From an uncultured Eubacteriales bacterium (GTDB lineage: Bacteria > Bacillota_I > Bacilli_A > RF39 > UBA660): a stretch of 64,000 nt of DNA. This document shows positions 2,805-60,384 of this stretch, piece by piece. Every line of letters begins with the position of its first letter. The stretch's first letter is position 1. Below the pieces are notes generated by a model that saw only the letters and a list, made by a program, of their open reading frames with translations, was not told the DNA's origin and searched no databases. The translations under genes and the position numbers were made by a program. The stretch is from positions 5,803 through 69,802 of the forward strand of contig CAUTAF010000007.1 of assembly GCA_963536495.1 (NCBI GenBank). The letters run 5' to 3'.

Positions 2805-2812
2805 GAGAAATA

Positions 2813-17870: not shown

Positions 17871-17896
17871 CTTGAATTAACAATAAAAAGACTTTA
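17871..17896. repeat. 26-bp direct repeat copy 1 (cttgaattaacaataaaaagacttta); the second copy is at 20508-20533
   Basis: The two copies are exactly identical and bracket the IS-flanked module. Confidence 0.85.
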
Positions 17897-17897
17897 A

Positions 17898-18138
17898 TGT
17901 CAATAACTTGGGAAAATGTCTCAAATAATTTAAAATATTAGCGTTAAGCGTATACATGATTTGTATGCGCTTTTTATTGCCGCCATTATCAACTAAATTT
18001 TTTATTATAGAATATTTATTATATTCATTCATTCTTAATTTTACCTTTCTCATATTGTCACCTCAGTGACATATTATATATTTTAATTGAGACATAATCC
18101 AAAGATAATCATTAAGACATTATCACAAGATAATCATA
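17898..18138 (-). mobile_element. Miniature, internally deleted derivative (~240 bp) of the IS-like element found at 19840-20507
   Basis: Its left ~75 bp and right ~165 bp are near-identical to the ends of the larger copy. The internal region, including the transposase fragment, is missing. The deletion junction lies at the short repeat 'tttttattgcc(g/a)cc'. Confidence 0.55.
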
Positions 18139-18166
18139 AATGTTATTATTAATGAAACAAAAAAAG

Positions 18167-18199
18167 TTGACAATTTAGAAATTTTTATATATATTAAAT
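18167..18199 (+). promoter_or_regulatory. Putative sigma-A promoter (TTGACA-17-TATATT) driving the leader and cassette
   Basis: ttgacaatttagaaatttttatatatatt. Confidence 0.35.
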
Positions 18200-18217
18200 T
18201 TAATTGGAGTGAAACTT

Positions 18218-18265
18218 ATGAAAAAGAATCAATTTCAATTAATATTTATGTTAAACAAATCATAG
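18218..18265 (+). CDS. 15-codon leader peptide ORF (MKKNQFQLIFMLNKS)
   Basis: A GGAGTG RBS is 7 nt upstream. Its stop codon overlaps the 5' arm of a strong hairpin + T6. Confidence 0.3.
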   Translation: MKKNQFQLIFMLNKS

Positions 18266-18299
18266 GGTAAGAGACTATTATAGTTTTTTACCCTTTTTT
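18265..18299 (+). terminator. Intrinsic terminator/attenuator hairpin in the 5' leader of the cassette
   Basis: GGGTAAgAgACTAT-t-ATAGTtTtTTACCC followed by TTTTTT, ~20 nt before the RBS of the 114-aa gene. Confidence 0.5.
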
Positions 18300-18320
18300 G
18301 TTGCTATATAGGAGGTAAAA

Positions 18321-18665
18321 ATGGCAAGAAAAAAACCAGAAGATTTTAAAGATGAAGATGGGAATATTGATTATCGAGCATATGCAAAATACTTAGATTC
18401 TGCTGAATGTGCTAATGATGATAATTATGATATTTTGGTTGATGTTCAATCTGGTAATATTTATGAGAGAACTGATGGAGATTGGACAAAAGGGCATGGA
18501 CATAAAAATGTATTTAATGGTTATAATAGAGATAAAGATAGTAAAAGCAGTAGTTCAGATAAACACCCTTGGAGAAATCCTTGGTTAGAGTATAATTCTT
18601 CTTATGTTATGACTGATGAAGAATATGAATTAGTTAAGTCGCCAAAAAAGTTAATAAAAAAATAA
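18321..18665 (+). CDS. Hypothetical hydrophilic 114-aa protein (first gene of the IS-flanked cassette)
   Basis: Strong RBS 'TAGGAGGT'. Acidic and His/Trp-containing, with no TM. No motif was recognised. Confidence 0.45.
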   Translation: MARKKPEDFKDEDGNIDYRAYAKYLDSAECANDDNYDILVDVQSGNIYERTDGDWTKGHGHKNVFNGYNRDKDSKSSSSDKHPWRNPWLEYNSSYVMTDEEYELVKSPKKLIKK

Positions 18666-18666
18666 A

Positions 18667-19443
18667 ATGTATAGATTGTTAGAACTAATTATTAAAAATA
18701 GTAGACAAAATAAATTATTAAATATTAATGATATTGAAATTATAGTGAAAAATTTATTAGAAATATATGATGTAGATGAATATTTAAAAAATATTAGGTA
18801 TACTAATTCAAAAACTTTGTATGTTGGTGCATATGATTCTATAAAAAAAGAATTGATTTTTAATTATAAAAAAATATTAAGTGTTATTTTGAATATTAAA
18901 AAAGAATCTTTTTTTAAAGTTTATGACAATTATATATTATATTTTAATATCGTTATTTTACAAATAATTATGCATGAATTCGAACATATTTATCAACAAA
19001 AAGTTATTTATAATATAGATAATGAATATTCTGAATTTTTAAAAAAATTTTTATATATTCAAGATACAATTAGTAAGAAATATTATGAAATATGTCCTGA
19101 AGAAAGGACGGCAGAAATCCTTTCTTATGAAAAAATTAATAATTCTATGGAATATATGTCTGATTTTAATATAGAAATTAAAGATATTATAAATACTGAT
19201 TATATTCAAAGAAAAATTAGAGGTTATAAATATTATAATGATAAATTTATTATTCCTACATATGAATATTTAAAATATTGTGATATGACAATTGATTTTG
19301 ATTTTTTTAATAAAATAAAAGAGTTAAATGAAAGATTATTATATGGTTTAGAAGTTAGTAATGAAGAAATTTTGCCTATTAAAAAAAAGATATATTTAAA
19401 GGTGAAAAAATATTTTCAAAATAGAATTATAATAGAAAAATAA
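18667..19443 (+). CDS. HExxH-motif protein, putative zinc metallopeptidase-like (possible toxin/effector or regulator)
   Basis: 'IIMHEFEHIYQQ' is a single HExxH signature in a 258-aa soluble protein. Its start abuts the stop of the 114-aa gene in the +1 frame. The 3' end is duplicated at 59659-59759. Confidence 0.45.
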   Translation: MYRLLELIIKNSRQNKLLNINDIEIIVKNLLEIYDVDEYLKNIRYTNSKTLYVGAYDSIKKELIFNYKKILSVILNIKKESFFKVYDNYILYFNIVILQIIMHEFEHIYQQKVIYNIDNEYSEFLKKFLYIQDTISKKYYEICPEERTAEILSYEKINNSMEYMSDFNIEIKDIINTDYIQRKIRGYKYYNDKFIIPTYEYLKYCDMTIDFDFFNKIKELNERLLYGLEVSNEEILPIKKKIYLKVKKYFQNRIIIEK

Positions 19444-19448
19444 TAGAG

Positions 19449-19757
19449 GTGATGAATATGAAATTAAATATAGAAGATTTAAAATATTTAAGTGGTTCAA
19501 AATTAGATGATGGATATAGACTTGTATATAAAAAAAATAATGATTTTGATATTGGTAGTTATTGTAAAACAATAGAAGGATTTATATGCGAAATAAATGA
19601 TTATAATCCATATAGTTTATATGATGAAAAGGAATTTGTTTCTATTGAAAATTTATTAGAGGAGATAGCTAAAAAGTATAATGAAAATGAAGTATATATT
19701 TATAAAACAGATGGTACTTTGATATCTTCATATAAGAAAAAAGATAAAAAAATATAA
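19449..19757 (+). CDS. Small 102-aa protein, candidate cognate immunity/partner protein
   Basis: RBS 'AGAGGTG'. It has a paralog of about 83% identity at 59766-60083. Confidence 0.5.
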   Translation: MMNMKLNIEDLKYLSGSKLDDGYRLVYKKNNDFDIGSYCKTIEGFICEINDYNPYSLYDEKEFVSIENLLEEIAKKYNENEVYIYKTDGTLISSYKKKDKKI

Positions 19758-19839
19758 TCCAAATTGAATTCTAAAAGAAAAGTAGATTTTTTGTAATATA
19801 ATTAAGTTTTCTAAAATATGAAAAAATTAATACTTTTTT

Positions 19840-20507
19840 GTCAATATCTTAGAAAAATGTCTCAAATAATTTAAAACATTAGCGTTAAGCGTATACATGA
19901 TTTGTATGCGCTTTTTGTTGCTGCCTTTTAAACACCTCAACTCTCCACGGATGATTCATTGGAGAGATATATTTCTTTATCTGTTTTGTTTATGTTTTCT
20001 TTCTTTTTAAGTAATTTTATTTTCTTTAAGTGTCTTCTTGTTCTGCGCCTTAATTTTGGTGAATAGATACTATTCTTAGTTAAAGTAGAGTATATAAAGT
20101 TATAGGACACTTTGATGTTTTCTCTTTCTTCTAATAAATCTTTAAAGTGATTAAAATTACAATCATAGTATTTATTCTGATAAAGTAGTATAATGTTTTT
20201 GGAGAGAGTTAGATCTAGTGTGTTTGTAGGTTTATGTCCTCGGTTGCCGTGGACAAATCCGGATTTACCTTTCTCCTTATATTTAATAATAAGACGATCT
20301 ATTTGTCTTCTTGATAAATTTAGTTTGATAGCAGCATTATTTTTATTGCCACCATTATCAACTAAATTTTTTATTATAGAATATTTATGATATTCATTCA
20401 TTCTTAATTTTACCTTTCTCATATTGTCACCTCAGTGACATATTATATATTTTAATTGAGACATAATCCAAAGATAATCATTAAGACATTATCACAAGAT
20501 AATCATA
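19840..20507 (-). mobile_element. IS-like element remnant (~670 bp) with imperfect terminal inverted repeats around 'ATGTCTCAA(A/T)TAA' and a truncated transposase
   Basis: Its ends match the miniature copy at 17898-18138. An internal palindrome TGTCAC-ctca-GTGACA lies upstream of the transposase start. Confidence 0.6.
19937..20422 (-). pseudogene. Truncated transposase: N-terminal helix-turn-helix fragment (IS481/ISNCY-like 'SRRQIDRLIIKYKEKGKSGFVHGNRGHKP'), catalytic domain missing
   Basis: The 161-aa ORF carries an HTH plus the 'G...NRG.KP' motif typical of the N-termini of IS481/ISNCY-type transposases. It is too short to contain a DDE domain. Confidence 0.5.
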
Positions 20508-20533
20508 CTTGAATTAACAATAAAAAGACTTTA
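20508..20533. repeat. 26-bp direct repeat copy 2
   Basis: Identical to 17871-17896. Confidence 0.85.

Positions 20534-33701: not shown

Positions 33702-33708
<7 letters not shown>
30811..33708 (+). CDS. Cell-wall-anchored LRR surface protein, paralog 1 (signal peptide, LRR, Ig-like modules, TSP3-like Ca-binding repeat, coiled coil, NPKTG sortase signal)
   Basis: N-terminus 'MKKKLLIIVLLLVLLITS'. LRR runs such as 'LELSDNNIKSINIP...LNKNKLNNIDLSNSPNLEEL'. 'LLRDTDKDGIADKDDDDKDGDGYSN' (DxDxDG). C-terminus 'NPKTGIKTYSLVILFIIFISYIVFKKKKSYIR'. Confidence 0.7.
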
Positions 33709-33774
<66 letters not shown>

Positions 33775-33791
33775 GATAATAGAGGTATCTT

Positions 33792-36700: not shown

Positions 36701-37439
36701 AGTAACAAAATTAGAGAATAATATTAGGTTTTATAAAGCTGGTAATTTTAATACTAAAAATAAACTTCATGTAAATAATTTTAAATTAAACTTTTTGCCA
36801 CAAAAAGAAAGAGAATTAAATAATATAAAAGATTCTTATGATATTACAACAAGTGAAGTTGAATTAAATAATAAAAAAATAAAATTAAAAGAAGAAATAA
36901 AATCTATAAATGAAGAATTAAATGAAATAAAAGATAAAGCTAACTTTGAAGAATTAAATAAAGTAATTTCTTCACAAGTTGAAGAGTTATATACTAAAGA
37001 ATCATTTGAACCTTTAAAATTAAAGATAAAGGAAGCAAAAGAGTTGGATAAAGACAGTGCTACTCAAAAAGAAGTAGATGATATGACATTTGATATAATT
37101 TCTCTTATTTATGATTTAAAATTAAATTTAACAGAATTAAAAGAAAAAATTGAAGAGTTAGAAACTTCAATAGAAAAAGGTATTTGTATAGATGAATCTT
37201 GTAAATCTGCATTAAAAGAAGTTAAAAGAATATATGAATTAGGTGGTATATGTAAATATAATTCTATGACATTAGAAGATAATAACTATGTAATTAATAT
37301 AATTGATAATTTGTTAAAAAATAAAAAGGATGGTTTAGTAAATCCTAAGACTGGAATAAAGACATATAGTTTAATAATACTATTTATAATATTTATTAAT
37401 TATTTAGTATTTAAGAAAAATAAAAATTATATAAGATAA
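33792..37439 (+). CDS. Cell-wall-anchored LRR surface protein, paralog 2 (1215 aa; two TSP3-like repeats; NPKTG)
   Basis: Same N-terminal domain ('KLKELNYNVTYKEAFPDENLRRGVILCIMRN'). Long LRR tract ('LDLNGNNIKKLDLSNNLNIEKL...'). Two 'LLRDTDKDG..DKDDDDKDGDG' modules. C-terminus 'NPKTGIKTYSLIILFIIFINYLVFKKNKNYIR'. Confidence 0.7.
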   Translation: MKNKKLLIIIVVLLVLITSFLLFILKPNTKNKKLKELNYNVTYKEAFPDENLRRGVILCIMRNRCGEDQANHIAYNYDEIKKEKYISDSRYYNDYYRTKNWLNNTNFGSVITKEELEAKENETISKVDLDKLKVLLANDYEYLDSLQGIEYLPNIKVLMLDYVRQEHIDLSTNKKLEKVFLEGKSINLDENIRIKELILKVYKETQNINLSHLSSLEALSFRDSHLSNMTLPSSIKKLDLNGNNIKKLDLSNNLNIEKLILNNNPLENLNISMLTNLKVISVSANSIPDLTKNLNLEEISIKGWNSPMEDIRPNIGEVDFNKNVNLKKLEITSSKIKNINLNKNINLEELTLRNNAINTLDLSKNINLKNLTLENNEIKNISIPNSVTKSNSIDKLNVNIKRDTYQEISLTYNGQKVYLNPNSSFTREGDNYKFKNLGTYNLTAISPDSKFTWNVIVKVTPKDTDLEVDKFYRPSIEDEIDANELRKQVVNLPKNVKKFEIIDPLPTKYFVHGKYIIKVRLTFDDGSIKEYDLYLKIYDKPARYLPIEDYGVSYFNGMDGFFSEGRPEPKDSKYYLSFTLREDYSRIIEGNKIDYTRRIQDQGECFYYGQDDRYNDVYDIDCKSDFTLKSKYTNVPDGIKINDNGFSGVIDYIWDDNEEEHVFEMKYEENGHIYFLNETFKFILLRDTDKDGTPDKDDDDKDGDGYSNEEELTKGSDPYDKTSVPNGVNQGEAGKFIPIIDQKDYKPIICEDISEENLKKIVTNLPNNIKKFEVIKPIFNKYCEKGKKSIKIEVTFNDNTKKKFYVDVNIYDVEYEKPTIEIKDNNQKVLDGKEVNIDILRKHEEAADDTELIKYKEAELIGYRFYDKVNGLTYSSNKISGKIDYNFIGDEEEHEFIIKYVPDYYSFSGTEEKIRVTLLRDTDKDGIADKDDDDKDGDGFTNDEEISKGSDPYDKASIPDISKKEEVDNLVTKLENNIRFYKAGNFNTKNKLHVNNFKLNFLPQKERELNNIKDSYDITTSEVELNNKKIKLKEEIKSINEELNEIKDKANFEELNKVISSQVEELYTKESFEPLKLKIKEAKELDKDSATQKEVDDMTFDIISLIYDLKLNLTELKEKIEELETSIEKGICIDESCKSALKEVKRIYELGGICKYNSMTLEDNNYVINIIDNLLKNKKDGLVNPKTGIKTYSLIILFIIFINYLVFKKNKNYIR

Positions 37440-37545
37440 AGTTAAAATTAACTTTATCTTTTTTATATTTACAATATAAATTGTAATTTTATTTTTTTAT
37501 TTGTCATAAAAAATATATATGGTATATTGCTATAGTGAGGTAAAA

Positions 37546-39828
37546 ATGAAGAATAAAAAAACTATAATATTATTAATAGTATCAGTCTTATTTGTATCAG
37601 GATTTTTGCTATTAAATAAAACAAGTAGCGTAAAACAAATAAAATTAAAAGAGTTAAATTATAATGTAACTTATAAAGAAGCATTTCCAAATTCTAATAT
37701 TAGGAAAAGTATAATACTTTGTATTATGAGAAATAGATGTGGAGAAGAACAATATAATTCTGGTATGTATACTGTTGAAAAGTATAATGCTCAACATCCA
37801 GGTACATATAACACTTATATACAGTATTATATGACTCGTGAATATGCTAATAATTCAATGTTTGGTTCTACAATAAGTGAAGCAGAAATAGAAGCAAAAG
37901 AAAATGAAACTATTTCAAAAGAAGATTTAGATAAAATAAAAATATTAATTCCAAATGAACCTGGAGAAACTATTAGAAATTTAGGTGGAATAGAGTATTT
38001 GAAAAATTTAAAAGTATTATGTAATTTTAAGTTAGATGTTGAAAATCTTGATTTATCACATAATAAAGAATTAGAAACTATATTATTTAATACTGATTCT
38101 TCATCAGAAATTTCGAAAATTAAAAAAATAATTGTAGAAGAAGATAATAAGTTAAAATTATTAGCTCTTGAATTAGAAAACGAAACTATAGATATATCTA
38201 ATTTAAAGACTTTAGAAGTAGTAATTTTAAAAAATGGTAATATAAAAAATATAGTTTTACCAAATAATATTAAAAAATTAGATTTAGCATTTAATAAAAT
38301 TTCTAGTATAGTTTTACCAGAAGAAGTAGAAGATGTTAATTTAGATGCTAATCTTATTGAAAATATAAAAATACCATCTAAAGTTATAAAAGCTAATATA
38401 AGTAGAAATAAGATTAGTAGTATAGATTTAAGTGATGCAATTAAACTTGAAAGATTAGAATCAAGATTTAATCCTATTGAATCAATTGATTTAACAAAAT
38501 CTGTAAATTTAAAATTTATAGAATTGAAAGGTGCAAAAATTAAAGCTAAAACAATAGATTTTAGTAATAATCCAAAATTAGAGGTTGTATCATTAAATTA
38601 TTTTATTCCAATGCCTCCAATACCTGGTAGACCGAATATTTCTGATGTAGGAATGAAACTTGAAACTTTAGATTTTAGCAATAATCCTAATTTGATTGGA
38701 ATAAATGCAGAAAAAATAGGCTTGAAATCAATCGACTTAAGTAAAAATCTAAAATTAACATATGTCAATATTAATAATAACGAAATTCAAGATTTAAAAA
38801 TACCAACAACTTTAAAAAGAAACAGTATTCAAAATATTAATTTTAAAATAAAGAAAAATTCTTATATAGATCTTCCTATATTATTTAATGGAGAAAAAGT
38901 ATATTTAGAAGATAGTGATAATTTTAAAAGAGTAAATGATAAATATATATTTGATATAGTAGGAATTTTTAATGAAAAAGTTAAAAAAGAAATAACAGAT
39001 GGTTATAAATATGAAGCTAATGTTACAGTTGAAGTAGAAAGTGGAGAAGAAGAAACTTATACACCAACATTAAGTAATCAAGTAGATTACAAACCTGAAT
39101 CTAATAAAGAACTTTCAGTTGATAAAATAAAAGAAATGGTTAATAATTTACCATCAAATATTAAAAACTTTGAAATAATATCTCCAGAAGATAAAAAGTT
39201 TACATCAGAAGGAGATAAAAAAGTTAAAGTAAGAGTAACATTAAGTGATGATACATTTAAAGAATTTGATATAGATATAAAAGTTTATGAAGAAAAAGTT
39301 ATCTTACCTGAAATAACTGTTACAAAACCAGTTGAAAACAAAAAACCAGAAAGAGGATATTATGGTTTTAGAAAAGCAAATAAAAGAGTAAGAAGAAGTT
39401 TAGATAAGTATAATGAAGTAAATGAATCTGTAAAAGAATTAGAAAAATTAATAGAAGATAGTAAAAACAATAATTTTGAAACTAAAGAAGAAACGGATGT
39501 AGAAAATTTAAAAAATAATATTTTAGTAAAAATAGAAGAAGCTAAAGAAAAACTTAAAAAATCATATACAGAAGAAACAGAAGAAGAAAAACTTATAGAA
39601 ATAAAAGAAAAGGTATTAAAAGAAATAGAAGGTTTAAAAGAAGAATTAAATAAAATAAGAGAAAAACAAGTATCTAATAATGAAGAAAAAGTAGAAAAAC
39701 CAACTCTATTAAAAGAAAACAAAAAACAAGATACTAAATCATTTAATTATTTCTTAATATTAATACCAGTAAGTTTAATAATATTAATTTTAATATTATT
39801 AAAGAGAAGAAAAAAGGAAAGAAGATAA
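37546..39828 (+). CDS. LRR surface protein, paralog 3 (760 aa from the internal Met). It lacks the TSP3 module and the NPKTG motif and ends in a TM helix + RRKKERR.
   Basis: 'MKNKKTIILLIVSVLFVSGF' with a GAGGT RBS; the ORF track starts 27 nt earlier. It has the same conserved N-domain and LRRs. C-terminus 'FLILIPVSLIILILILLKRRKKERR'. Confidence 0.65.
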   Translation: MKNKKTIILLIVSVLFVSGFLLLNKTSSVKQIKLKELNYNVTYKEAFPNSNIRKSIILCIMRNRCGEEQYNSGMYTVEKYNAQHPGTYNTYIQYYMTREYANNSMFGSTISEAEIEAKENETISKEDLDKIKILIPNEPGETIRNLGGIEYLKNLKVLCNFKLDVENLDLSHNKELETILFNTDSSSEISKIKKIIVEEDNKLKLLALELENETIDISNLKTLEVVILKNGNIKNIVLPNNIKKLDLAFNKISSIVLPEEVEDVNLDANLIENIKIPSKVIKANISRNKISSIDLSDAIKLERLESRFNPIESIDLTKSVNLKFIELKGAKIKAKTIDFSNNPKLEVVSLNYFIPMPPIPGRPNISDVGMKLETLDFSNNPNLIGINAEKIGLKSIDLSKNLKLTYVNINNNEIQDLKIPTTLKRNSIQNINFKIKKNSYIDLPILFNGEKVYLEDSDNFKRVNDKYIFDIVGIFNEKVKKEITDGYKYEANVTVEVESGEEETYTPTLSNQVDYKPESNKELSVDKIKEMVNNLPSNIKNFEIISPEDKKFTSEGDKKVKVRVTLSDDTFKEFDIDIKVYEEKVILPEITVTKPVENKKPERGYYGFRKANKRVRRSLDKYNEVNESVKELEKLIEDSKNNNFETKEETDVENLKNNILVKIEEAKEKLKKSYTEETEEEKLIEIKEKVLKEIEGLKEELNKIREKQVSNNEEKVEKPTLLKENKKQDTKSFNYFLILIPVSLIILILILLKRRKKERR

Positions 39829-39901
39829 AGCTAAATTAACTTTATTTTTTCTTTTTAATAAAAATATATAAATATGATATACTATTATAGTAGAGGTATG
39901 T

Positions 39902-42900
39902 ATGAAGAATAAGAAGTTATTAATTGTTTTTGTAGTGTTATTGGTATTAATAACATCTTTTTTATTGTTTATCTTAAAACCAAATACAAAAAATAAAAAA
40001 CTAAAAGAGTTAAATTATAATATAACATATAAACAAGCTTTTCCTGATGAAAATTTAAGAAAGAGTATACTTTTATGTATAATGAGAAATAAGTGTGGGG
40101 AAGAACAGTATAATTCTGGAGCATATAATTTTGAAACATATAGACAAAAACATGATGCAGATTTTGATAATAAATATTATTTTACAAGAACATATGCTAC
40201 TGATACTAGTTTAGGTCCTGTTATTACGGACGATGAAATAAATACTAAAGCAGAAGAACAAATATCAAAAACAGATTTAGATAAAATACAGGTTTTTATA
40301 TCAAATGATTCATATTTTAGCCATGAAGTAACAGGAATAGAATATTTAACAAATTTAAAAGCTGTCGTATTAATAAATTTATATAATTATAATGTTGATT
40401 TTTCATATAATAAAAATTTAGAAAGAGTATTTTTAGGCTATGGTAGTACTTTAAGTTATATTAAAAATGTAAATTTAAATCAAAATACAAAATTAAAAGA
40501 AATAGCTATAAATTTTAATTTTTATGGCAGAAGTAATAAATTAGAATTAGATTATTCTATCCTTAATGACTTAGAAACTTTAATAATTGATTCTCCATTA
40601 GAAGATGATTATATAAGATTACCACTTGGAATCAAAATTTTGAAATTAAAAAATTTTGATATGAAAAGAACAAATTTATCTGAATTAGTTAATTTAAAAG
40701 AACTTGATGTAGATGTTTTTAGAAGTGGTAAAATAGATTTTAGTAAAAATAATAAATTAGAAAAGCTTTATTTATATAATGAAGAAAAAAATAAAAAAAT
40801 AGACAGTTTAGATTTTAGTAATAATCCAAATTTAAAAGAACTAGATATAAATAAAATTGGTATAAAAAATATAAATTTAGATAAAAATATAAATTTAGAA
40901 AAAATAAAATTTTCAGGAAATAATATTAATGAATTAGATTTATCTAAAAATATTAATCTTAAAGATGTTATTTTAAGTAATAACAATATTACAAATATAA
41001 AATTAAATAGTGAAAAAGTAGAAAAGTTAGATTTATCTGATAATAAGTATTTAAAAAACATAAATGTAACTAGACTTTCTAATTTAAAATATTTAAATCT
41101 TGATAATACAATGATTAAGACTGATACAATAGATTTTAGTAAAAATCCTCTTTTAGAAGAAGTTTATATAAAATATATTCCAAATCCATCTCAAGGTTAT
41201 TATCCTGCTGATGATAAAAGTCCGATAAATATAAACAGTTTAGATTTTAGTAATAATCTTAATTTAAAAACATTAAAAGTAAAAGCTAAATTAAAAAAAT
41301 TAAATATAGAAAGAAATATTAATTTAAAAGACCTTGATATTAGTATAAATAATATTACAGATTTAAAAGCTCCTAATCATTTAAATTATAACACTTCTCA
41401 ATGGATAAAAATAAAAGTAAAAAAAGATACAGATATAGAAATTCCAGTTAATTTTAATGGAGAAAAATTATATTTAAATCCTACTAGTTATATTATACGT
41501 AATGGAGATAAATATAGATTTACTGCAAAAGGAAAATTCGAGGAATCAATTTGTTCTACTAAAAACGGATTTAATTATTGCCTTTATTTAAATATTGAAG
41601 TGTTATATAAAGATGAAAATATTGATTCTTCATTAACATTAATTGATCAAACAACTGAAGATTATAGACCAGGAATAAATGAAGAAATAGATGTTAATCA
41701 AATAAGAAGAATGATTACAAATTTACCGGCAAATACGAAAAAGTTTGAAATTGTAGAACCTAAACCTGCTAAGTTTAAAGAAAAAGGCAAAAACATATTA
41801 AAAGTTAAAGTTACTTTTGATGATGATACATCTAAAGTATATAATTTACCAATTAATATTTATGAAAAAATATATAATTCAGTTGAATTTGACAGAAAAA
41901 TTAATGGAGAACCAGTAAATATTTTAGAAAAAGAAGGTAAATGTATTTTCCCATGTGGAATAGAAACATTTGAAAATAAAGAATTTAATTATGTAAGACA
42001 TAGACAATATATAAGAACAAATTGTAATTGTCCAGGTGAAGAGTTTAATGATACTAATTTGCTTGCTCGTGTAAATGATAAAGTTTTAAGTTATGAATAT
42101 ATTGGTTTACCAAATGGCTTATCAGCAGACGAAAATGGAATACATGGCAAGATTGACTATAAATGGAAAGAAAATGAAAAAGAACATACTTTTTATGTAG
42201 TATATAAAGAAAAAGGTCATGCTTATAATATTGAAGAAACTATTAAAATAAAAGTTTTAAGAGATACAGATAAAGACGGAATACCAGATAGTGAAGATGA
42301 TGATGTGGATTCTGATGGCTTTAGTGATGTAGATGAACTTAAAGCTGGAAGTAATCCATATGATAAAAATTCAACACCTTTAAATGTAACAAATGTATCA
42401 AAAAATACTGAGGCAGATAAGTTTAATCCGATAATAGATCAAAAAGATTTTAAACCTTTGACAACTCAAACTTTATCAAAAGAAAAAGTAAAAGAAATGA
42501 TAACTAATTTACCAACTGATATTAAAAGCTTTAAAGTTCTTACAACTATATATGATAAATATACAGAAAATGCGAAAACAAAAATAACTGTTTTAATAAC
42601 ATTTAAAGATAATAGTAAAAAAGAATTTGATGTACCTATTAAATTTTATAAAGAAGAATTTATTAGACAGATAATAAATATTGAAGAAACTACATCTATA
42701 ATAGAAGGTAAGACTCTTAATCTAGATGTAAAAATAAGATATAACGAAGAAGAAAGAATTGATGAAACTAATTTAATAAAATATGTTTATGAAAAACAAA
42801 AATATTATTACTATACTTCTTTACCACAAGGTTTAAAATATACTTCTAATAAAATAAGTGGAGTAATTGATTATAAATTTCTAGGTGAAGAAGAGGAAAA

Positions 42901-43846
42901 CGTTTTTTATGTAACTTATTATGAAGGAACAAATCCAAAAACATCATTTAAAATTAAACTTTTAAGAGATACAGATTCTGACGGAATCGCAGATAAAGAT
43001 GATGATGATAAAGATGGAGACGGAGTAAGTAATGATGAAGAAACAGCTAATGGAAGTGATCCATATAATAAGAATATAGTACCAGGAATGACTAAAAAAC
43101 AAATACTTGATGTACTTGTTAATGATTTAGAAAAACTAATTAATGATAGTAAAAATAATAATTTTGAAAATAAGAGTAAAATATATGTAGATAATTTTAA
43201 AGAACATATAGCTGAAAAAAACAAAAAATTAAAAGAAATAAAAATATCTTATAATGATACAACATCTGATACAGAATTAGTAAAATTAATTGAAGAAGTT
43301 AAAGAAGAAATAAATAATATAAAAGAAGGAATAAATAATATAGAAGATAAAGCTAATTTTGAAGTTTTAGATAAAGAATTATCCAATATTTTATTAAAAG
43401 AAGATTATTATACTGAAAATATATATGAAGGATATTTGAAATTAATCAAAGAAGCTAAAAATTTATCTAAAGATACTGCAACACAACAAGAAGTAGATTA
43501 TATGGTTTCTTCATTAAATAGAGAAAAAAATATGGTCATTGATGATAAAACTAAATTAAAAGAAAAAATAAAAGAATTAAAAGAACAATTAGATAATGGA
43601 CAATGTCAAGAAGAAGAGTGTAGTTATATAAAAGATAAAATATTATTTTTATATAGTGAAGAAGGTATTTGTGATTCTGTTTCAATAGAAGAATTGATAG
43701 AAATAGTAGAAATATCAAAAGATTTATTTAAAAAGAGTTCACTTAAAAATCCAAAAACTGGTATAAAAACATATAGTTTAATAATTCTATTTATAATATT
43801 AATTAGTTATAAATTAATTAAGAAAAATAAAAATTATATAAGATAA
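39902..43846 (+). CDS. Cell-wall-anchored LRR surface protein, paralog 4 (1314 aa; two TSP3-like repeats; NPKTG)
   Basis: N-terminal 40 aa almost identical to paralog 2. LRRs are present. 'VLRDTDKDGIPDSEDDDVDSDGFSD' and 'LLRDTDSDGIADKDDDDKDGDGVSN'. C-terminus 'NPKTGIKTYSLIILFIILISYKLIKKNKNYIR'. Confidence 0.7.
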   Translation: MKNKKLLIVFVVLLVLITSFLLFILKPNTKNKKLKELNYNITYKQAFPDENLRKSILLCIMRNKCGEEQYNSGAYNFETYRQKHDADFDNKYYFTRTYATDTSLGPVITDDEINTKAEEQISKTDLDKIQVFISNDSYFSHEVTGIEYLTNLKAVVLINLYNYNVDFSYNKNLERVFLGYGSTLSYIKNVNLNQNTKLKEIAINFNFYGRSNKLELDYSILNDLETLIIDSPLEDDYIRLPLGIKILKLKNFDMKRTNLSELVNLKELDVDVFRSGKIDFSKNNKLEKLYLYNEEKNKKIDSLDFSNNPNLKELDINKIGIKNINLDKNINLEKIKFSGNNINELDLSKNINLKDVILSNNNITNIKLNSEKVEKLDLSDNKYLKNINVTRLSNLKYLNLDNTMIKTDTIDFSKNPLLEEVYIKYIPNPSQGYYPADDKSPININSLDFSNNLNLKTLKVKAKLKKLNIERNINLKDLDISINNITDLKAPNHLNYNTSQWIKIKVKKDTDIEIPVNFNGEKLYLNPTSYIIRNGDKYRFTAKGKFEESICSTKNGFNYCLYLNIEVLYKDENIDSSLTLIDQTTEDYRPGINEEIDVNQIRRMITNLPANTKKFEIVEPKPAKFKEKGKNILKVKVTFDDDTSKVYNLPINIYEKIYNSVEFDRKINGEPVNILEKEGKCIFPCGIETFENKEFNYVRHRQYIRTNCNCPGEEFNDTNLLARVNDKVLSYEYIGLPNGLSADENGIHGKIDYKWKENEKEHTFYVVYKEKGHAYNIEETIKIKVLRDTDKDGIPDSEDDDVDSDGFSDVDELKAGSNPYDKNSTPLNVTNVSKNTEADKFNPIIDQKDFKPLTTQTLSKEKVKEMITNLPTDIKSFKVLTTIYDKYTENAKTKITVLITFKDNSKKEFDVPIKFYKEEFIRQIINIEETTSIIEGKTLNLDVKIRYNEEERIDETNLIKYVYEKQKYYYYTSLPQGLKYTSNKISGVIDYKFLGEEEENVFYVTYYEGTNPKTSFKIKLLRDTDSDGIADKDDDDKDGDGVSNDEETANGSDPYNKNIVPGMTKKQILDVLVNDLEKLINDSKNNNFENKSKIYVDNFKEHIAEKNKKLKEIKISYNDTTSDTELVKLIEEVKEEINNIKEGINNIEDKANFEVLDKELSNILLKEDYYTENIYEGYLKLIKEAKNLSKDTATQQEVDYMVSSLNREKNMVIDDKTKLKEKIKELKEQLDNGQCQEEECSYIKDKILFLYSEEGICDSVSIEELIEIVEISKDLFKKSSLKNPKTGIKTYSLIILFIILISYKLIKKNKNYIR

Positions 43847-45108: not shown

Positions 45109-46212
45109 ATGTTTGATGAATTAACTAATGTAAGAGCTGCTAATATTAAGGTAATAGGTGTTGGTGGTGGTGGTTGTAAAGCCGTTAATAGAATGAAAGA
45201 AACAGTTGAAGGTGTAACTTTTATTATTGCTAATACTGATTTACAAGATTTAACTACAGCTAATGCTGATGTTAAAATTCAATTAGGACAAGAGTTAACT
45301 GGAGGAAGAGGAAGTGGTGCTAAGCCAGAAGTAGGTAAAAAAGCAGCACAAGAATCTAAAAAAGATATAGAAGATGCATTACAAGGTGCACACATGGTAT
45401 TTATTACTTGTGGAGAAGGTGGAGGAACTGGAACAGGAGCTGCTCCAGTAATAGCTGAAATAGCACAAAATTTAGGAGCATTAACAGTAGCAGTAGTTAC
45501 AAAACCATTTTCTTTTGAAGGTAAATCTAGAATGAAGAATGCTCAATTAGGTATAGAAGAATTAAGAAAACATGTTGATTCTTTAATAGTAGTACCTAAT
45601 GATAATCTAGAAACTTTAATAGATAAGAACACTCCAGTATTACAAGCTTTTGGAGAAGTTGATAATGTATTAAGACAAAGTGTTCAATCAATTTCAGATT
45701 TAATTAATTTCCCTGGAGATATTAACTTAGACTTTTCAGATATTACAACTACTATGAAAGATAGTGGAACAGCAGTAATAGGTATTGGGGTAGGTACTGG
45801 AGAAGATAGAGCTATTCAAGCAGCTAAACAAGCTGTTCAATCTCCTCTTTTAGAAAAATCTATAGTTGGAGCTACTAAAGCAATTATTAACATAACTGGT
45901 GGAAGTAACTTAACATTATATGAAACAAAACAAGCAGTTAAGATTATTGAAAGTTATGCACAAACAGATTTAAATGTATTCTATGGAACTATAATTAATA
46001 AAAATATTAGTGATGATCAAATTATTGTTACAGTAATAGCAACAGGATTTGAAGAATATACTAAAAAACCAATTGAAGAAGAACAAGAAGTAATAGATAC
46101 ACAAAAAAGAGAAGAAAAACCAGTTGTTAATAATGTAAATAATTCATATGATGATATAGATACAGATGGGGATTATGTATTACCAAATTTTTTAAGAAAT
46201 AGAAATTATTAG
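45109..46212 (+). CDS. ftsZ: Cell division GTPase FtsZ
   Basis: '[13 protein letters not shown]' and the tubulin signature '[16 protein letters not shown]'. Confidence 0.95.
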
Positions 46213-46214
46213 AA
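46134..46214 (+). repeat. 81-bp direct repeat copy 1 (3' end of ftsZ). Copy 2 at 47110-47190 has 3 mismatches.
   Basis: aatgtaaataattcatatgatgatatagatac(a/g)gatgg(g/a)gattat/cgtattaccaaattttttaagaaatagaaattattagaagttatattta. Confidence 0.85.
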
Positions 46215-46609
46215 GTTATATTTAAATTAAATACTTTTAAAGTTCACGCTAAATAAAAATAATATATAAATATATTAAAAGTTATTTAGAAAGAACTTTA
46301 GAGGTATTTTTTATATCTAAACATAAAAATGGATTTTAGAAGATAAAGTCAAAATAGTTAAAAACTAAAAAAATGAATTATTAAATATTAAAATAATAAA
46401 TATGATAATATAAAAATATAAAAATATAAAATGTTTTATTGAAAATTAAAAAATTAGTTATTAGTTATGCTTTAATTTTTAAAATATATAATTAAAAATG
46501 CTAATAGATATATAAATTTAGATTTTGATATGTTTATATATATTGATAGATTTAAAAGTAGAGAAAAAATAAATGTTAAAAAATATTGGAAGGATATAAG
46601 GATTGTATA

Positions 46610-47101
46610 ATGAATATAAAAACAAATGATATTAGAATAAAAAATGATGAGTATAATTTTCATTTTAGAGTAGTAGCTATAATAGAACAAAATAATAAAT
46701 TTTTAATACAAAGAATAGAAGGATATGATTATTATATTTTACCTGGAGGACATGTTAATTTAGGAGAAGATAGTATTACTGCTATAAAACGTGAGGTTAA
46801 AGAAGAAGTTGGTTGCGATATTAAAGATTCAAAATTAATTTGTTTTCATGAAAATTTTTATTTAAATAAAGGACGACAAGAACATTGGATTGAAAATTAT
46901 TTTCTTATAAAACCAATGAAAAAACTTTCTGAAGAAAATTGGACATTTGTGGAAAAAGATAAAGAAGCAGAAAAAACTTTACATTTTTATTGGATGAGTA
47001 AGGAAGATATAAAAAAAATAAATTTAAAACCAACATCTATAAAAGATTTAATTATAAGTGATAAAATTAGTGGTTTTAATTATTTAATTAATAATAAATG
47101 A
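46610..47101 (+). CDS. NUDIX hydrolase
   Basis: Nudix box 'GGHVNLGEDSITAIKREVKEEVG'. The ATG at 46610 has an AAGGA RBS; the ORF track starts at 46586. Confidence 0.7.
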   Translation: MNIKTNDIRIKNDEYNFHFRVVAIIEQNNKFLIQRIEGYDYYILPGGHVNLGEDSITAIKREVKEEVGCDIKDSKLICFHENFYLNKGRQEHWIENYFLIKPMKKLSEENWTFVEKDKEAEKTLHFYWMSKEDIKKINLKPTSIKDLIISDKISGFNYLINNK

Positions 47102-47109
47102 AAAATAAA

Positions 47110-47190
47110 AATGTAAATAATTCATATGATGATATAGATACGGATGGAGATTACGTATTACCAAATTTTTTAAGAAATAGAAATTATTAG
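47110..47190 (+). repeat. 81-bp direct repeat copy 2: a pseudo-3'-end of ftsZ that retains the intact terminator
   Basis: See 46134-46214. Confidence 0.85.
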
Positions 47191-47218
47191 AAGTTATATT
47201 TATAACTTCTTTTTATTT
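47183..47218 (+). terminator. Rho-independent terminator (the ancestral ftsZ terminator, now downstream of the NUDIX gene)
   Basis: GAAGTTATA-ttt-ATAACTTC followed by TTTTTATTTT. The copy after ftsZ itself (46207-46230) is disrupted after the loop. Confidence 0.6.
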
Positions 47219-56086: not shown

Positions 56087-57337
56087 ATGAAAAAAATATT
56101 GATAGTATTTGCATTAATATTATTACCTTTTGTAACTTTAGCAGATGAAGAAGAAAAGAAAAATACAACACTATTAAATAAAAATTTAATAGTGGAATGT
56201 ATATATAGTGATGGAGGATTATATTCTTATGAATATAATGAATCTGAAAATACATTTATTACTAATAGACAAGAATTTTTAGGTACAGGTAAAAAAGTAG
56301 TTCCTTCTAATATTATCTTTTTATCAGAACTTACATCAATTAATGAAACCCTTACAGTAGTAGATAAAGATTTAACATGTAAAAGATATATTTATAGTGG
56401 TATTTCTAAAAGAGAAGATGAAGAAGCTAAAAAAGATAATGTCCAAAATATTTATATGTTTATTAAAGGAAGTAATTCAAAAGATAATCCTATTAAATTA
56501 GAAGATGCATCAATTGATAGCTATACTGGTAAATGGTATACACTTGGTATTCCTTTAGCAAAAACAGAAGTTAGAAAAGCTTTAGATACTGCAATTATAG
56601 AACAAAAAAGATATGAATTAGTAAATCAAAGATATCGTTTGTTAGATACAGATACTATAAATCCTAAACAAGTATGTCATTTTGAATCAAATAGTAAAAG
56701 TGATAATATTTCTACTAAAAAAGATATATTAACTGCTCAAATATATTCTAATCATACTTTGATAAAAACAAGTGATGATTATTATAATTTACTTACAAAA
56801 GATGAATCTAAGTTAATAGAAGATATATGTGGTACTAGTGATAAAGATAAAATATATATAAATGATTCTACAGTATCAGCAACTGGAGATTCTAGTGGTG
56901 GAGCAAAGATTGCTGCAAAAACTTATGATAAAGAAAGACAAACTCGTTTAACACTTAGTGAAAAAGAAAGTAAAGTTAATTTTTTAGAATATAAAAAAAT
57001 TAGTGAAAATAAAATGGAAGATAAAGAAGTAAATGATAAACTATGTGAAACGATTCCAAATGTTGCAAAAGTATTAAGAGATATTATTAAATTTGCAAGA
57101 ATAGCTATTGGAGCATTAGTAATAATTCTTATAGCAATAGAAATACTTCATTTTGTTAGTAGTTCTAATCCAAGTGATCAACTTCCAATTACAATTAAAA
57201 AGATTAGTAATCGAATTATATTAATGGTTGTTATATTGTTGTTACCATTAATTACTAATATTATTGTTACTATCTTAAAAAGTGCAAATACGATAGAAAC
57301 ATCAACTATACAAGTTATAGATTGTTTGTTTAAATAG
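56087..57337 (+). CDS. Secreted/membrane-anchored 416-aa protein (Sec signal peptide, Cys-containing ectodomain, two C-terminal TM helices)
   Basis: 'MKKILIVFALILLPFVTLA|DEEE'. C-terminal 'IAIGALVIILIAIEILHFV' and 'IILMVVILLLPLITNIIVTIL'. Confidence 0.4.
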   Translation: MKKILIVFALILLPFVTLADEEEKKNTTLLNKNLIVECIYSDGGLYSYEYNESENTFITNRQEFLGTGKKVVPSNIIFLSELTSINETLTVVDKDLTCKRYIYSGISKREDEEAKKDNVQNIYMFIKGSNSKDNPIKLEDASIDSYTGKWYTLGIPLAKTEVRKALDTAIIEQKRYELVNQRYRLLDTDTINPKQVCHFESNSKSDNISTKKDILTAQIYSNHTLIKTSDDYYNLLTKDESKLIEDICGTSDKDKIYINDSTVSATGDSSGGAKIAAKTYDKERQTRLTLSEKESKVNFLEYKKISENKMEDKEVNDKLCETIPNVAKVLRDIIKFARIAIGALVIILIAIEILHFVSSSNPSDQLPITIKKISNRIILMVVILLLPLITNIIVTILKSANTIETSTIQVIDCLFK

Positions 57338-57345
57338 GAGATAAT

Positions 57346-59589
57346 ATGCCAATATTAGATATTTTAAAAACAATTGATATAGCACAACTATCTGTAGAAA
57401 TAATAGGTTTATTAGCAAGTAGATGGTTTATACTAAATGGTATTATTTTTATATTAAGATCACTTAGTTATTTTGTTGATTCTCAATTTGTAAATTTAAT
57501 TGGTATGATTTATAAATATTTCACATTACTTTTAAAAGGTGAAATGTTTAATGAACAGATAGTATCACAGTTATTATCTAGTATATATGTATTTATTGGT
57601 CTTATTATCTTTTTTAGATTAGCTACTGTATTAATTAAATATTTAGTAAATCCAGAAACTATAGAAAGTTCTGTTGATAAAACTGGGTTATTTTCTGGAC
57701 TTGTTAGAAGAATAGTAATAGGTAGTATTATGATTGCGTTAATACCATTTATTTTTTCTACTTTAAATAGACTTCAAGTAGCAATAGTAGAAGATAATGT
57801 TATTCAAAATATATTTATTCAAAATGAATCATTTAAAAATTTTAATAAAAGACATGCATTAAATGGTGGTCAATATTTAGCTAATTATGTTTTAGCAGGT
57901 TTTATAAGACCCGTTAATAATAGTTCTAGTTCAGTGAAAATGAGTTATGAAGCTATGAAAAAATCAGCTAATCCAGATTTAATTAATATAAATGCTGGAG
58001 TAGTACCAGGAGTAGTAGTTAAATATAGTTATACTTATTATTTTATAGTTTCTACATTCGTTCTTTTTATTGTATTTAAAACAATGATAGGTTATGCACT
58101 TGATATTATTACGAGATTCTTTAAAACTCTTTTATATCAATTAATGGCACCTATTGCCATAGTAGAATATATGATAAGTGGAAATGGTGGAGTATTTGAA
58201 AAATGGAAAACTAGTGTAATAGCTAATTATTTATCTTTATTTGTTAGAATGTTATCAATTTGGTTTTTAGTATTTATACTTTCATTAATGACGGCAGATG
58301 GACTTCCTAATGGTAATTTACTTAAAACAGATGATGATTTATTAAGAGCAATAATAGTTTTAGCGTTAATTGCATTTATGAAAGATTTACCAAGTTATGT
58401 AGGTCAGATAATTGGATTTGATTTAAGACAAGAAAGTTCTGCTATGTCTATGGTAAGTGGAGCAGCAACTGCAGTGCTTGGAGCAGCAGGAGCAGGTCTT
58501 ATGGCGGGAAGTGGAATGATAGGTAATTCTTTAAGAAGTATAGGTGGTACTTTAAATAGAAATATTGGAAGTAAAATAGCTGGAGCTACAGCTGCAGCTC
58601 AAAATGCTCGTAATAAAGGAAGACAGATGGGTCTTACTGGCGAAGAGTTAAGGCAAGCAAGTAGAAATGCTTTAAGAGATTATGGAAATCAACAAGTTGC
58701 TGAAAGAAGAAGTAGAGGTAATGCTTTACAAAGAATGAGAAATACTGCAGCAGAAGGTATAAGAAATAATGCAATGAATGATGTTAGAGATTCGGTTAGT
58801 AGTATTACAAGTATTGCAGATCATATACCAGCTCTTCATCAAACAGGAGTTCCAGCTGCAGCACAAAATTTATTTAATACTGTAACAGCTAATAATAATG
58901 GACAAAGACAAAATCAAACTCCACCAGAAACTCAAAATCAAAACACTAACTCAGGAGCAAATAGTAATCAAGTTTTATTAAGACCAAATAGAGCAAATCA
59001 TTTAAATTTACTTAATGGAAGTAATTTAAATAATATTAATGCAACAGGAAATTCACTTACTAGAGATGAATCTATTGAAAATATGACTGATTTCTTGTTT
59101 AGAGCAGATAATAATCAAAGTTATAGTGATTATTTATCTAATGTACAAAATGATAATTTAGAAACAAATAATGTTCCAGCAGAAGATAGAAATGTTATTT
59201 TAACAAGAGCAGGAGTTACTGATAGTAACGCAACAGTTATTAGAAATTCTCATACTTTAGAAGAAATAGCTAGAAATATATCAAGTAATTCTAATGGAAC
59301 AATAAGTTATGAACAAGCTTATGAAACAACTAGAACTTATATTGAAGGAGCAGGTATAAGAGCACAAAGTAGATATAGTATAACTGATTCTAATGGAGGA
59401 GTTAATACTGTTGATATACCTTGTGTTGATCAAAATGGTAACTTCTTAAGAACAGGAGAATATACTTTAACTAATGATAATATTAAAGATATAACAGATG
59501 ATATTAAAAATCATTATTGGGGTAGATCTGCAGAAGATTACTTTGATACTAATTTAGAAGAAAATAATGGAGGAGTATCTAGAAAATAG
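57346..59589 (+). CDS. 747-aa polytopic membrane protein: ~7 TM N-domain, Gly/Ala-rich segment, Asn/Gln-rich variable C-terminal domain (VirB6/TrbL-like topology; possible delivery protein)
   Basis: Hydrophobic helices through residue ~400. 'GAATAVLGAAGAGLMAGSGMIGNSL'. The C-terminal 300 aa are low-complexity N/Q/S/T-rich with a structured end. The orphan cassette follows downstream. Confidence 0.4.
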   Translation: MPILDILKTIDIAQLSVEIIGLLASRWFILNGIIFILRSLSYFVDSQFVNLIGMIYKYFTLLLKGEMFNEQIVSQLLSSIYVFIGLIIFFRLATVLIKYLVNPETIESSVDKTGLFSGLVRRIVIGSIMIALIPFIFSTLNRLQVAIVEDNVIQNIFIQNESFKNFNKRHALNGGQYLANYVLAGFIRPVNNSSSSVKMSYEAMKKSANPDLININAGVVPGVVVKYSYTYYFIVSTFVLFIVFKTMIGYALDIITRFFKTLLYQLMAPIAIVEYMISGNGGVFEKWKTSVIANYLSLFVRMLSIWFLVFILSLMTADGLPNGNLLKTDDDLLRAIIVLALIAFMKDLPSYVGQIIGFDLRQESSAMSMVSGAATAVLGAAGAGLMAGSGMIGNSLRSIGGTLNRNIGSKIAGATAAAQNARNKGRQMGLTGEELRQASRNALRDYGNQQVAERRSRGNALQRMRNTAAEGIRNNAMNDVRDSVSSITSIADHIPALHQTGVPAAAQNLFNTVTANNNGQRQNQTPPETQNQNTNSGANSNQVLLRPNRANHLNLLNGSNLNNINATGNSLTRDESIENMTDFLFRADNNQSYSDYLSNVQNDNLETNNVPAEDRNVILTRAGVTDSNATVIRNSHTLEEIARNISSNSNGTISYEQAYETTRTYIEGAGIRAQSRYSITDSNGGVNTVDIPCVDQNGNFLRTGEYTLTNDNIKDITDDIKNHYWGRSAEDYFDTNLEENNGGVSRK

Positions 59590-59658
59590 ATACTTCTTTA
59601 TTTAATGAAATAATATTATTGAGGAATGTAAAATGAATTTAAAAGTGTATAAGGTTAT

Positions 59659-59759
59659 TGTATGGATTAGAAGTTAATAATGAAGAAATTTTGCCTATTA
59701 AAAAAAGGTATATTTAAAGATGAAAAAATATTTTCAAAATAGAATTATAATAGAAAATA
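59659..59759 (+). pseudogene. Remnant of the last ~33 codons of the HExxH-protein gene (homolog of 19343-19443)
   Basis: About 90% nt identity with the 3' end of the 18667-19443 gene. Only a 14-codon ORF (MNLKVYKVIVWIRS) remains. Confidence 0.6.
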
Positions 59760-59765
59760 ATAAAG

Positions 59766-60083
59766 GTGATTAATATGAAATTAAACATTGAAGAATTAAA
59801 ATATTTAAGAGGTTCAAAATTAGACGATGGATATAGACTTGTGTATAAAAAAAATAATCATTTTGAAATTAGTAGTTATTCTAAAACTATAGAAGGATTT
59901 ATATGTGAATTAAATGATTATAATCCATATAGTTTATATGATGATGAAAAGAAATTTATTTCTATTGAAAATTTATTAGAAGAAATAGCACAAAAATATA
60001 ATGAAAAAGAAGTATCTATTTATAAAACAGATGGTACTTTGGTTTCATCATATAATCAAGATGATATAAATAAATTTAAATAA
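59766..60083 (+). CDS. Small 105-aa protein, paralog of 19449-19757 (orphan immunity/partner candidate)
   Basis: About 83% aa identity by eye ('MKLNIEELKYLRGSKLDDGYRLVYKKNN...'). The same RBS context is present. Confidence 0.55.
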   Translation: MINMKLNIEELKYLRGSKLDDGYRLVYKKNNHFEISSYSKTIEGFICELNDYNPYSLYDDEKKFISIENLLEEIAQKYNEKEVSIYKTDGTLVSSYNQDDINKFK

Positions 60084-60142
60084 TTTTTATATTATTTTGA
60101 TGTCTATAAGATATAATAAATAAGATTTCAAAAATAAAATAT

Positions 60143-60172
60143 AAAAAGCTATTGTTTTTACAATAGCTTTTT
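60143..60172. terminator. Bidirectional terminator
   Basis: AAAAAGCTATTG-ttttta-CAATAGCTTTTT. Confidence 0.6.
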
Positions 60173-60210
60173 AGTTTAGATTAAAATAAAAAAATATCTC
60201 TTTTGAGATA

Positions 60211-60384
60211 TTAAATTAATCCTAACTTTCTGAATGTTCTTAATTCTTTTGCACTAATTCTTATTTTAGTTCCATTAATTTTTACAACTTGAAGGTTTAA
60301 TCCTTGTTTTTTTCTAGTTGCATTTAACGCATGAGATCTTAAGTTTTTGAAGTTAGGTTTTCTACTTGTTACATTAATTGCCAT
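60211..60384 (-). CDS. rpmB: 50S ribosomal protein L28 (bL28); not in the ORF track because it is under 60 aa
   Basis: Reverse-strand translation MAINVTSRKPNFKNLRSHALNATRKKQGLNLQVVKINGTKIRISAKELRTFRKLGLI (57 aa). It has the 'SHALN' core and an RBS 'AGGAGGAAT' upstream. Its own terminator is at 60193-60212 (AATATCTC-aaaa-GAGATATT on the minus strand). Confidence 0.65.
   Translation of the reverse strand: MAINVTSRKPNFKNLRSHALNATRKKQGLNLQVVKINGTKIRISAKELRTFRKLGLI

Follow-up and report, generated by a model that had tools for sequence, protein, structure and literature searches.

Type II toxin-antitoxin systems are compact, co-oriented operons in which the antitoxin autoregulates through a DNA-binding domain, and solitary chromosomal antitoxins serve as anti-addiction modules. 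Stand-alone cytoplasmic zincins are also carried by mobile elements, examples being ImmA/IrrE (COG2856), which acts with a partner repressor, and the Lit protease of e14; to our knowledge, zincins of the family described here are not a known class of toxin. Polymorphic toxins have a different architecture, in which the toxin is a C-terminal domain that follows N-terminal trafficking or presentation regions, and their hallmarks are a multi-domain secreted carrier, C-terminal polymorphism, a link to a delivery system, and gene pairs in which the toxin precedes its immunity protein (Zhang et al. 2012, PMC3482391).

Within the window, i.e. the whole 64,000-nt stretch of DNA analysed here, a small intact gene stands behind the 3' end of an HExxH gene at 59590-60083 (locus B), and a related cassette with a full-length HExxH gene is present at a second site (locus A; Table 1). 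An initial annotation had read locus B as an orphan immunity gene in a polymorphic-toxin system of the Rhs/CDI/LXG kind. The window is very AT-rich (23.5% GC), and translation with code 11 gives ordinary bacterial genes.

Origin of the orphan copy

The repeat connecting the two loci, as claimed in that annotation, is real and far beyond chance, with 105 of 111 positions identical between the remnant at 59655-59765 and the cassette (94.6% with two gap columns against 19341-19448, pairwise alignment). A repeat search of the window further matched 19437-19627 to 59754-59944 at 92% and 19621-19755 to 59941-60075 at 86%. Over successive segments of about 100, 100 and 82 nt, the small gene is 91%, 93.8% and 86.6% identical to that of the cassette, with 74% over its final 27 nt (pairwise alignment), and identity is at background level on either side of the repeat, at 62% 3' of 60083 and 44% in the spacer at 59590-59654. 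HExxH residues of approximately 221-258 were matched in two frames (tblastn), and the remnant is non-coding, being put out of frame by its A run and having stop codons immediately 5' of it. The run is likewise one base shorter in L076, L002, L003 and L061, and has the in-frame length in L001.

Table 1. Features of the two loci in the window and of their immediate surroundings
Feature	Position	Strand	Remarks
Mobile unit, 2.6 kb: ISNCY remnant, module, second ISNCY remnant	17898..20508	.	Direct repeats
Left ISNCY remnant	17888-18138		250-bp internally deleted derivative
Gene 1, complete module	18321..18665	+	114 aa
HExxH gene, complete module	18667..19443	+	258 aa, gluzincin-like, motif HEFEH
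Small partner gene, complete module	19458..19757	+	99 aa from conserved ATG
Right ISNCY remnant	19829-20507		Holds truncated transposase
Truncated ISNCY transposase	19937-20422	minus	Model E=1e-29
Gene for 747-aa membrane protein, six TM-like segments	57346..59589	+	Neighbour, not part of module
Native spacer, 3' of 747-aa gene	59590..59651	.	98.4% to L076; not HExxH-derived
Deletion junction in short imperfect repeat	59648..59666	.	Three-way comparison
HExxH-gene remnant, last ~37 codons and stop region	59652..59765	+	Frameshifted, non-coding
A7 run in remnant (A8 in cassette)	59700..59706	+	Frame-shifting; from alignments
Gene-conversion tract from L004-type cassette allele	59707..59771	+	8/8 informative sites
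Ribosome-binding site AAAGGTGA of small gene	59762..59769	+	Position kept in all copies
Intact small partner gene, locus-B (orphan) copy	59775..60083	+	102 aa, acidic, alpha/beta
Bidirectional terminator hairpin, common to convergent rpmB	60142..60173	.	14-bp stem, both strands
rpmB	60211-60384	minus	57-aa ORF matches Ribosomal_L28

The small paralog is intact (profile match E=1e-47), as first described, but its length is 102 rather than 105 aa: the ATG at 59775 is the start in 18 of 18 homologues, and the GTG at 59766 lies within the ribosome-binding site AAAGGTGA. Similarly, the locus-A gene had been listed as 19449-19757 with 102 aa, and the conserved ATG at 19458 gives 99 aa. The two proteins are indeed close paralogs, with a computed identity of 80% in place of the approximately 83% given for the 105-aa and 102-aa frames. 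The distance of about 70 nt between the 747-aa gene and the remnant also stood, although this gap is the locus's native spacer, 98% identical to L076, which rules out an extension of the remnant to the 747-aa stop as suggested by a faint 'ID..FN.I' match. The terminator hairpin 3' of the small gene compares with 0.1 expected from shuffles, and a promoter scan found promoter-like sites no more often than in shuffled sequence (11 against 11.6 expected); transcription of the orphan would presumably start at a promoter within the remnant or reach it by read-through of the 747-aa gene.

A full module at locus B, which the initial annotation had suggested looking for in other strains, is present in L076 and L077, two 100%-identical metagenome contigs from the same species as the window, in the order rbfA, 416-aa gene, 747-aa gene, gene 1, HExxH gene, small gene, rpmB and dnaE. 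There, 540 nt separate the 747-aa stop from the module; gene 1 encodes 114 aa, the 102-aa small protein is identical to that of the window, and the HExxH gene is cut short at 243 aa by the same A-run frameshift as in the window's remnant. A segment of 1,472 bp in L076 is missing from the window, and the sequences that border it are 98.4% identical between the two, L076 6000-6699 matching the window's left flank and continuing into the spacer before the full module. Positions 59648-59666 of the window align to both L076 6681-6699 and L076 8172-8190, i.e. the two flanks overlap by 19 nt, and the same junction is found in L001-L003, L061 and L062. Because L076 matches the window on either side of the gap, the orphan is the product of an in-place deletion, by which gene 1 and about 221 HExxH codons were lost, and these comparisons indicate that locus B almost certainly once held a full module that was then reduced by deletion between short imperfect repeats. 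The orphan status claimed for the small gene is thus upheld, the HExxH gene having been lost and the downstream gene left intact; the proposed replacement by an incoming cassette is not, as the orphan did not arise by displacement of an old tip. In related species, there is either nothing or a glycosyltransferase gene between the 747-aa homologue (~70% identical) and rpmB, indicating that the module entered this site within the lineage.

Exchange between the two loci, a further suggestion of the initial annotation, was confirmed by a patch of about 65 nt that carries the cassette allele at 8 of 8 markers inside otherwise orphan-type sequence, the flanks being of orphan type at 4 of 4 sites in 59650-59699 and at 307 of 309 in the gene. 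The species also contains a third, solo small gene, between PPDK and a Fic gene (L014 5989-6986, L015 and L016), at which no trace of an HExxH gene was found. In L061, positions 2627-3611 connect the 747-aa locus with the Fic locus by way of a small gene of mosaic composition, which may be either a real rearrangement between paralogues or an assembly chimera.

The 747-aa protein gave a weak match to the NCBIfam conjugal-transfer family MMCAP2_0566 (E=4.8e-10, below the curated cutoff); despite this resemblance to a conjugal-transfer membrane protein of mycoplasma ICEs, no other transfer genes were found nearby. Its gene forms a pair (56087-59589) with that of a 416-aa protein, which has a signal-like N-terminus and two C-terminal TM-like segments, and related species keep the pair between rbfA and rpmB. 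The protein had been described as ending in an Asn/Gln-rich variable tail, and its C-terminal third is indeed rich in these residues (21.6% N+Q), but the C-terminus is conserved: compared with the 748-aa homologue in L001, identity is 91% overall and approximately 98% over the last ~240 residues, the divergence being at residues ~410-510, where this most variable stretch coincides with a GC peak of 0.38 at 58400-58800. A query with the C-terminus gave 68-71% identity in related species, mostly over the whole length, and the alternative C-terminal tips that had been envisaged were not found, there being no tip replacement between strains or across species. In the most distant loci with a 747-aa homologue (L068 and L070, 49-53%), the frames are fragmented alike under codes 11, 4 and 25, so that an alternative genetic code was rejected and indel-rich long-read assembly is the probable cause. 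Elsewhere in the window, four large tandem genes (965, 1215, 769 and 1314 aa) at 30811-43846 contain many internal and inter-gene repeats in leucine-rich-repeat-like units of ~63 nt (families D1-D18), and look like a family of variable surface proteins. A 97-nt repeat of 96% identity (46128-46224 and 47106-47202) covers the 3' ends and stops of the neighbouring genes at 45109-46212 and 46586-47101.

A three-gene zincin module in uncultured gut Bacilli

The locus-A copy is a second, diverged, IS-flanked whole module. Its 2.6-kb unit occurs with ~95% identity at a different chromosomal site in L004-L013, where it is flanked by tuf and Mac-1 (protease), as against phosphoesterase and trigger factor in the window. 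It may be a composite transposon: ISNCY remnants in direct repeat (D14 and D20) bracket the module, and although the sole transposase ORF is truncated (161 aa against a 368-position model), two sites are occupied in the species.

The module is a self-contained unit comprising gene 1 (~115 aa), a gluzincin-like HExxH gene (~260 aa) and the small gene (~100 aa). A small-protein profile search of GTDB species genomes recovered the triad in 13 of 31 assessable loci, and it is also present in L017, L021 and L079, which confirms the linkage of the small and HExxH genes among distant relatives. In L017, a Bacilli MAG, gene 1 is 50% and the HExxH protein 32% identical to those of the window (pairwise), and the small protein (P0015) is 42% identical to the orphan copy. 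Its hosts are without exception uncultured gut Bacilli, going by names such as 'Clostridium sp. CAG:710', Acholeplasmataceae or 'uncultured Bacilli'. The triad is compact and co-oriented, the small gene following the HExxH gene after 14-45 nt or overlapping it. Comparison of the flanks at 15 triad loci gave no gene family in common and no conserved secretion-system gene, and the flanks of the solo small-gene loci likewise had no gene family in common.

All three proteins are soluble and without signal-like segments, and searches of Pfam, NCBIfam, PHROGs and PADLOC gave no significant match to any of them, the one match in PHROGs being sub-threshold. Phage and plasmid records, viral contigs, PHROGs and PADLOC gave no match to the module, and an origin in a phage, plasmid or defence island was set aside for want of any supporting match in these databases. 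Of the three, gene 1 shows the strongest conservation, with invariant DW.KGHGH and W.N.W motifs in the alignment; a relationship to Pfam WDGH, a domain of which lies near an HExxH gene in L071, was considered and the two are unrelated. The module is undescribed, and its evolution bears the marks of a conflict system.

The HExxH family has 812 matched representatives in 1.84 billion proteins, and the best 150 of the 812 are stand-alone, most matching the profile nearly end to end and the full-length ones having ~250-310 aa. The residues H103, E104, H107, Q110 and E146 do not vary among 24 diverse members. In the predicted model, the HExxH motif lies on a helix at 89-116 and E146 on a helix at 144-162; the model thus has the gluzincin-type feature of an HExxH helix with a downstream Glu, on a predicted zincin fold whose match to solved zincins is generic (Z <=6.9). 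The protein has a pI of 8.2, as against 5.0 for the small protein, and a TM scan gave no TM segment or signal peptide, nor is there an N-terminal trafficking region. The nearest sequence family is DUF4344 (PF14247, putative metallopeptidase), weakly matched by 2 of the 24 members (best E=6.5e-5) and by neither the window's protein nor most of the others. Searched against PDB sequences, the HExxH profile gave spurious designed-repeat matches only. A large sister subfamily stands alone in unrelated contexts, without gene 1 or the small partner (L071, L073 and L075), which means that a zincin of this kind need not be harmful. A second HExxH gene, belonging to this sister subfamily (MSHIIK... HEVEHxYQ), directly follows the small gene of the triad in L017 (6745-7557) and is also seen in L048.

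The predicted structure of the small protein (AF2, pLDDT 84.7) is a four-stranded sheet with helices, for which a fold search found no significant structural relative. No significant match was found in Pfam or NCBIfam, hence none to an Imm or Tox family, and the protein has no recognisable DNA-binding domain and is not of helix-turn-helix type. DUF416 is an all-helical family, and assignment to it was rejected with matches below cutoff and an alpha/beta model. The most conserved motif is S/C-K-T-I-E-G-F (SKTIEG at 59883-59900 of the window), and SKTIEG fits the Fic-inhibitor pattern [ST]xxxE[GN]; a role as Fic antitoxin at the third locus was nonetheless rejected and the fit judged a coincidence, because many members have Cys in place of the Ser, because the Fic protein has its own C-terminal SYKYEG (L061 2982-3611), and because other solo loci have no Fic neighbour.

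Role of the small protein

In other species, too, HExxH genes have been lost or truncated, repeatedly and independently, with the small gene kept intact and under purifying selection. L037 and L039 have a clean deletion at the same locus at which L034 has a triad, collinear at 93-96% on both sides, and keep the last 15-42 nt of the HExxH gene together with the small gene. In L035, a triad is followed by an amidase gene, and at the same locus L032, L036 and L038 have the small gene and amidase only, L032 keeping the last 26 HExxH codons behind a transposase fragment. HExxH 3' fragments precede solo small genes in L032, L043 and L057, and the HExxH genes of L076 and L079 are truncated C-terminally with the small genes intact. 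On the MAG contig L043, two solo small genes that have diverged from each other lie within 4 kb (5956-6276 and 10349-10684, dS ~0.6), each just 3' of a histidine-kinase gene, the first being preceded by a 41-codon HExxH fragment. Between the orphan and cassette copies, dN/dS is 0.28-0.43. As most loci were found with the small protein as bait, loci that kept the HExxH gene and lost the small gene would have been missed, and the asymmetry of loss rests on the four HExxH-anchored lineages only: in 4 of 4 lineages of the window's subfamily whose neighbourhoods were seen (P0019, P0022 and P0027 from HExxH-protein searches, L017 from a small-protein search), a small gene follows the HExxH gene.

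A possible explanation for this pattern is that the zincin is kept harmless by the small protein as its cognate binding partner, such that the small gene would survive whenever the protease gene decays; in the present genome, the orphan may in addition act like an anti-addiction gene and buffer the module's mobile copy. Neutralisation of the zincin by an antitoxin- or immunity-like partner is favoured because linkage and gene order are kept at low identity, because the unit behaves like a small selfish operon, because the protease decays repeatedly while its partner is kept under selection, and because a basic enzyme is paired with an acidic small protein. Against it stand the partner-less sister zincins, a small protein without known fold or DNA-binding domain, and a gene 1 for which it offers no account, and this role, read from sequence, is proposed tentatively and held somewhat short of an even chance. 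As a whole, the best explanation is the deletion history combined with a zincin-neutralising partner, which we consider about as apt to be right as wrong. A fuller reading would make the triad an undescribed three-component conflict module, acting as a toxin-antitoxin or abortive-infection system, with a zincin that kills or arrests growth, the ~100-aa protein as dedicated inhibitor, gene 1 as sensor, substrate or regulator, and solitary inhibitors providing anti-addiction or immunity; in that specific form it is rather doubtful.

In the main rival reading, the small protein would instead be useful by itself, for example as a substrate or cofactor, or as the module's beneficial product that the zincin and gene 1 assist without being essential; the solo copies would then be ordinary paralogues and the HExxH fragment a mere deletion scar. 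Consistent with this, the small gene is alone in 18 of the 31 assessable GTDB loci, beside unrelated housekeeping genes; the GTDB scan found no second small-gene locus, hence no triad, in the solo genomes; solo copies are under purifying selection; the third copy, between PPDK and Fic, bears no trace of an HExxH gene; and relatives in the sister subfamily need no partner. However, each traceable solo locus derives from a full triad, as seen from orthologous loci and HExxH fragments, the order, tight spacing and co-occurrence of the HExxH and small genes are kept down to 32-42% identity, and no family or fold match suggests an independent function. A function of its own for the small protein is on balance unlikely, though it deserves serious consideration.

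Alternatively, the orphan could be a functionless, neutral leftover, the product of a recent deletion that has yet to decay. The deletion is lineage-specific and recent, with flanks 98.4% identical to L076, and small counts lie behind some of the dN/dS values, all of which would fit. However, the frame is intact in the window, L001-L003 and L061 (the L062 contig stops within it), and 73 contigs encode precisely this protein; the window and L001 have 2 differences over the 309 nt of the gene (0.6%), as against ~9% in the adjacent remnant; and older solo copies in other species are intact, with dN/dS of 0.15-0.9 (0.23 for L037 against L039). A neutral origin of this kind is accordingly improbable.

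If the small protein does neutralise the zincin, the module would represent a new family of protease-based toxin and partner, in a poorly known host group of uncultured human-gut Bacilli with small genomes. The natural series from full module through frameshifted protease and deletion to solo partner illustrates how orphan partner genes arise, and a single genome supplies two diverged partner paralogues and one protease for testing. If the small protein has an independent role, locus B would be an ordinary deletion scar beside a small uncharacterised gene family.

Comparison with known systems

Orphan modules of CDI, Rhs and other polymorphic-toxin loci resemble locus B in having a 3' fragment followed by an intact small gene, consistent with the large-then-small, toxin-then-immunity order (PMC3482391), and in their recurrence in several lineages with recombination between copies. 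They differ in that the present enzyme is a complete, stand-alone cytoplasmic zincin rather than the C-terminal domain of a secreted protein, and in that locus B involves no delivery system, an in-place deletion and a third conserved gene. Membership of the Rhs/CDI/LXG group, as first proposed, is not borne out, the HExxH protein being soluble and without a delivery domain and no secretion gene lying beside the module; of the polymorphic-toxin hallmarks, gene order is the only one that the module shares. A polymorphic-toxin locus with the 747-aa protein as carrier of exchangeable tips, and the remnant and small gene as a displaced orphan pair, would account for the gene order, the recombination between copies and the second HExxH gene behind the small gene in L017, but it is very hard to sustain given that the HExxH protein is never the tip of a larger protein (among the 150 best of 812) and lacks a signal peptide or TM segment, that the 747-aa C-terminus is ~98% identical between strains and ~70% across species, that the L076 module begins well beyond the 747-aa stop with its own first gene, that related species have no module after the 747-aa gene, that secretion genes are not conserved beside the module, and that the small protein matches no Imm or Tox family.

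With ImmA/IrrE and Lit, the module shares a soluble HExxH protein of 170-300 aa, an association with mobile DNA, and a small partner or trigger. It differs from them in that the present HExxH protein has no profile match to Peptidase_M78 or Peptidase_U49, and its partner is not a helix-turn-helix protein.

By analogy, the module resembles toxin-antitoxin operons with solitary antitoxins more closely than it does polymorphic toxins. In common with type II systems, it is a compact, co-oriented and tightly spaced operon that moves as a unit between unrelated contexts and lies beside IS elements, and it pairs a larger basic enzyme with a small acidic partner that is kept alone after loss of the enzyme. 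It departs from them in having three genes, in a partner without a recognisable DNA-binding domain, and in a sister zincin subfamily that lives without any partner.
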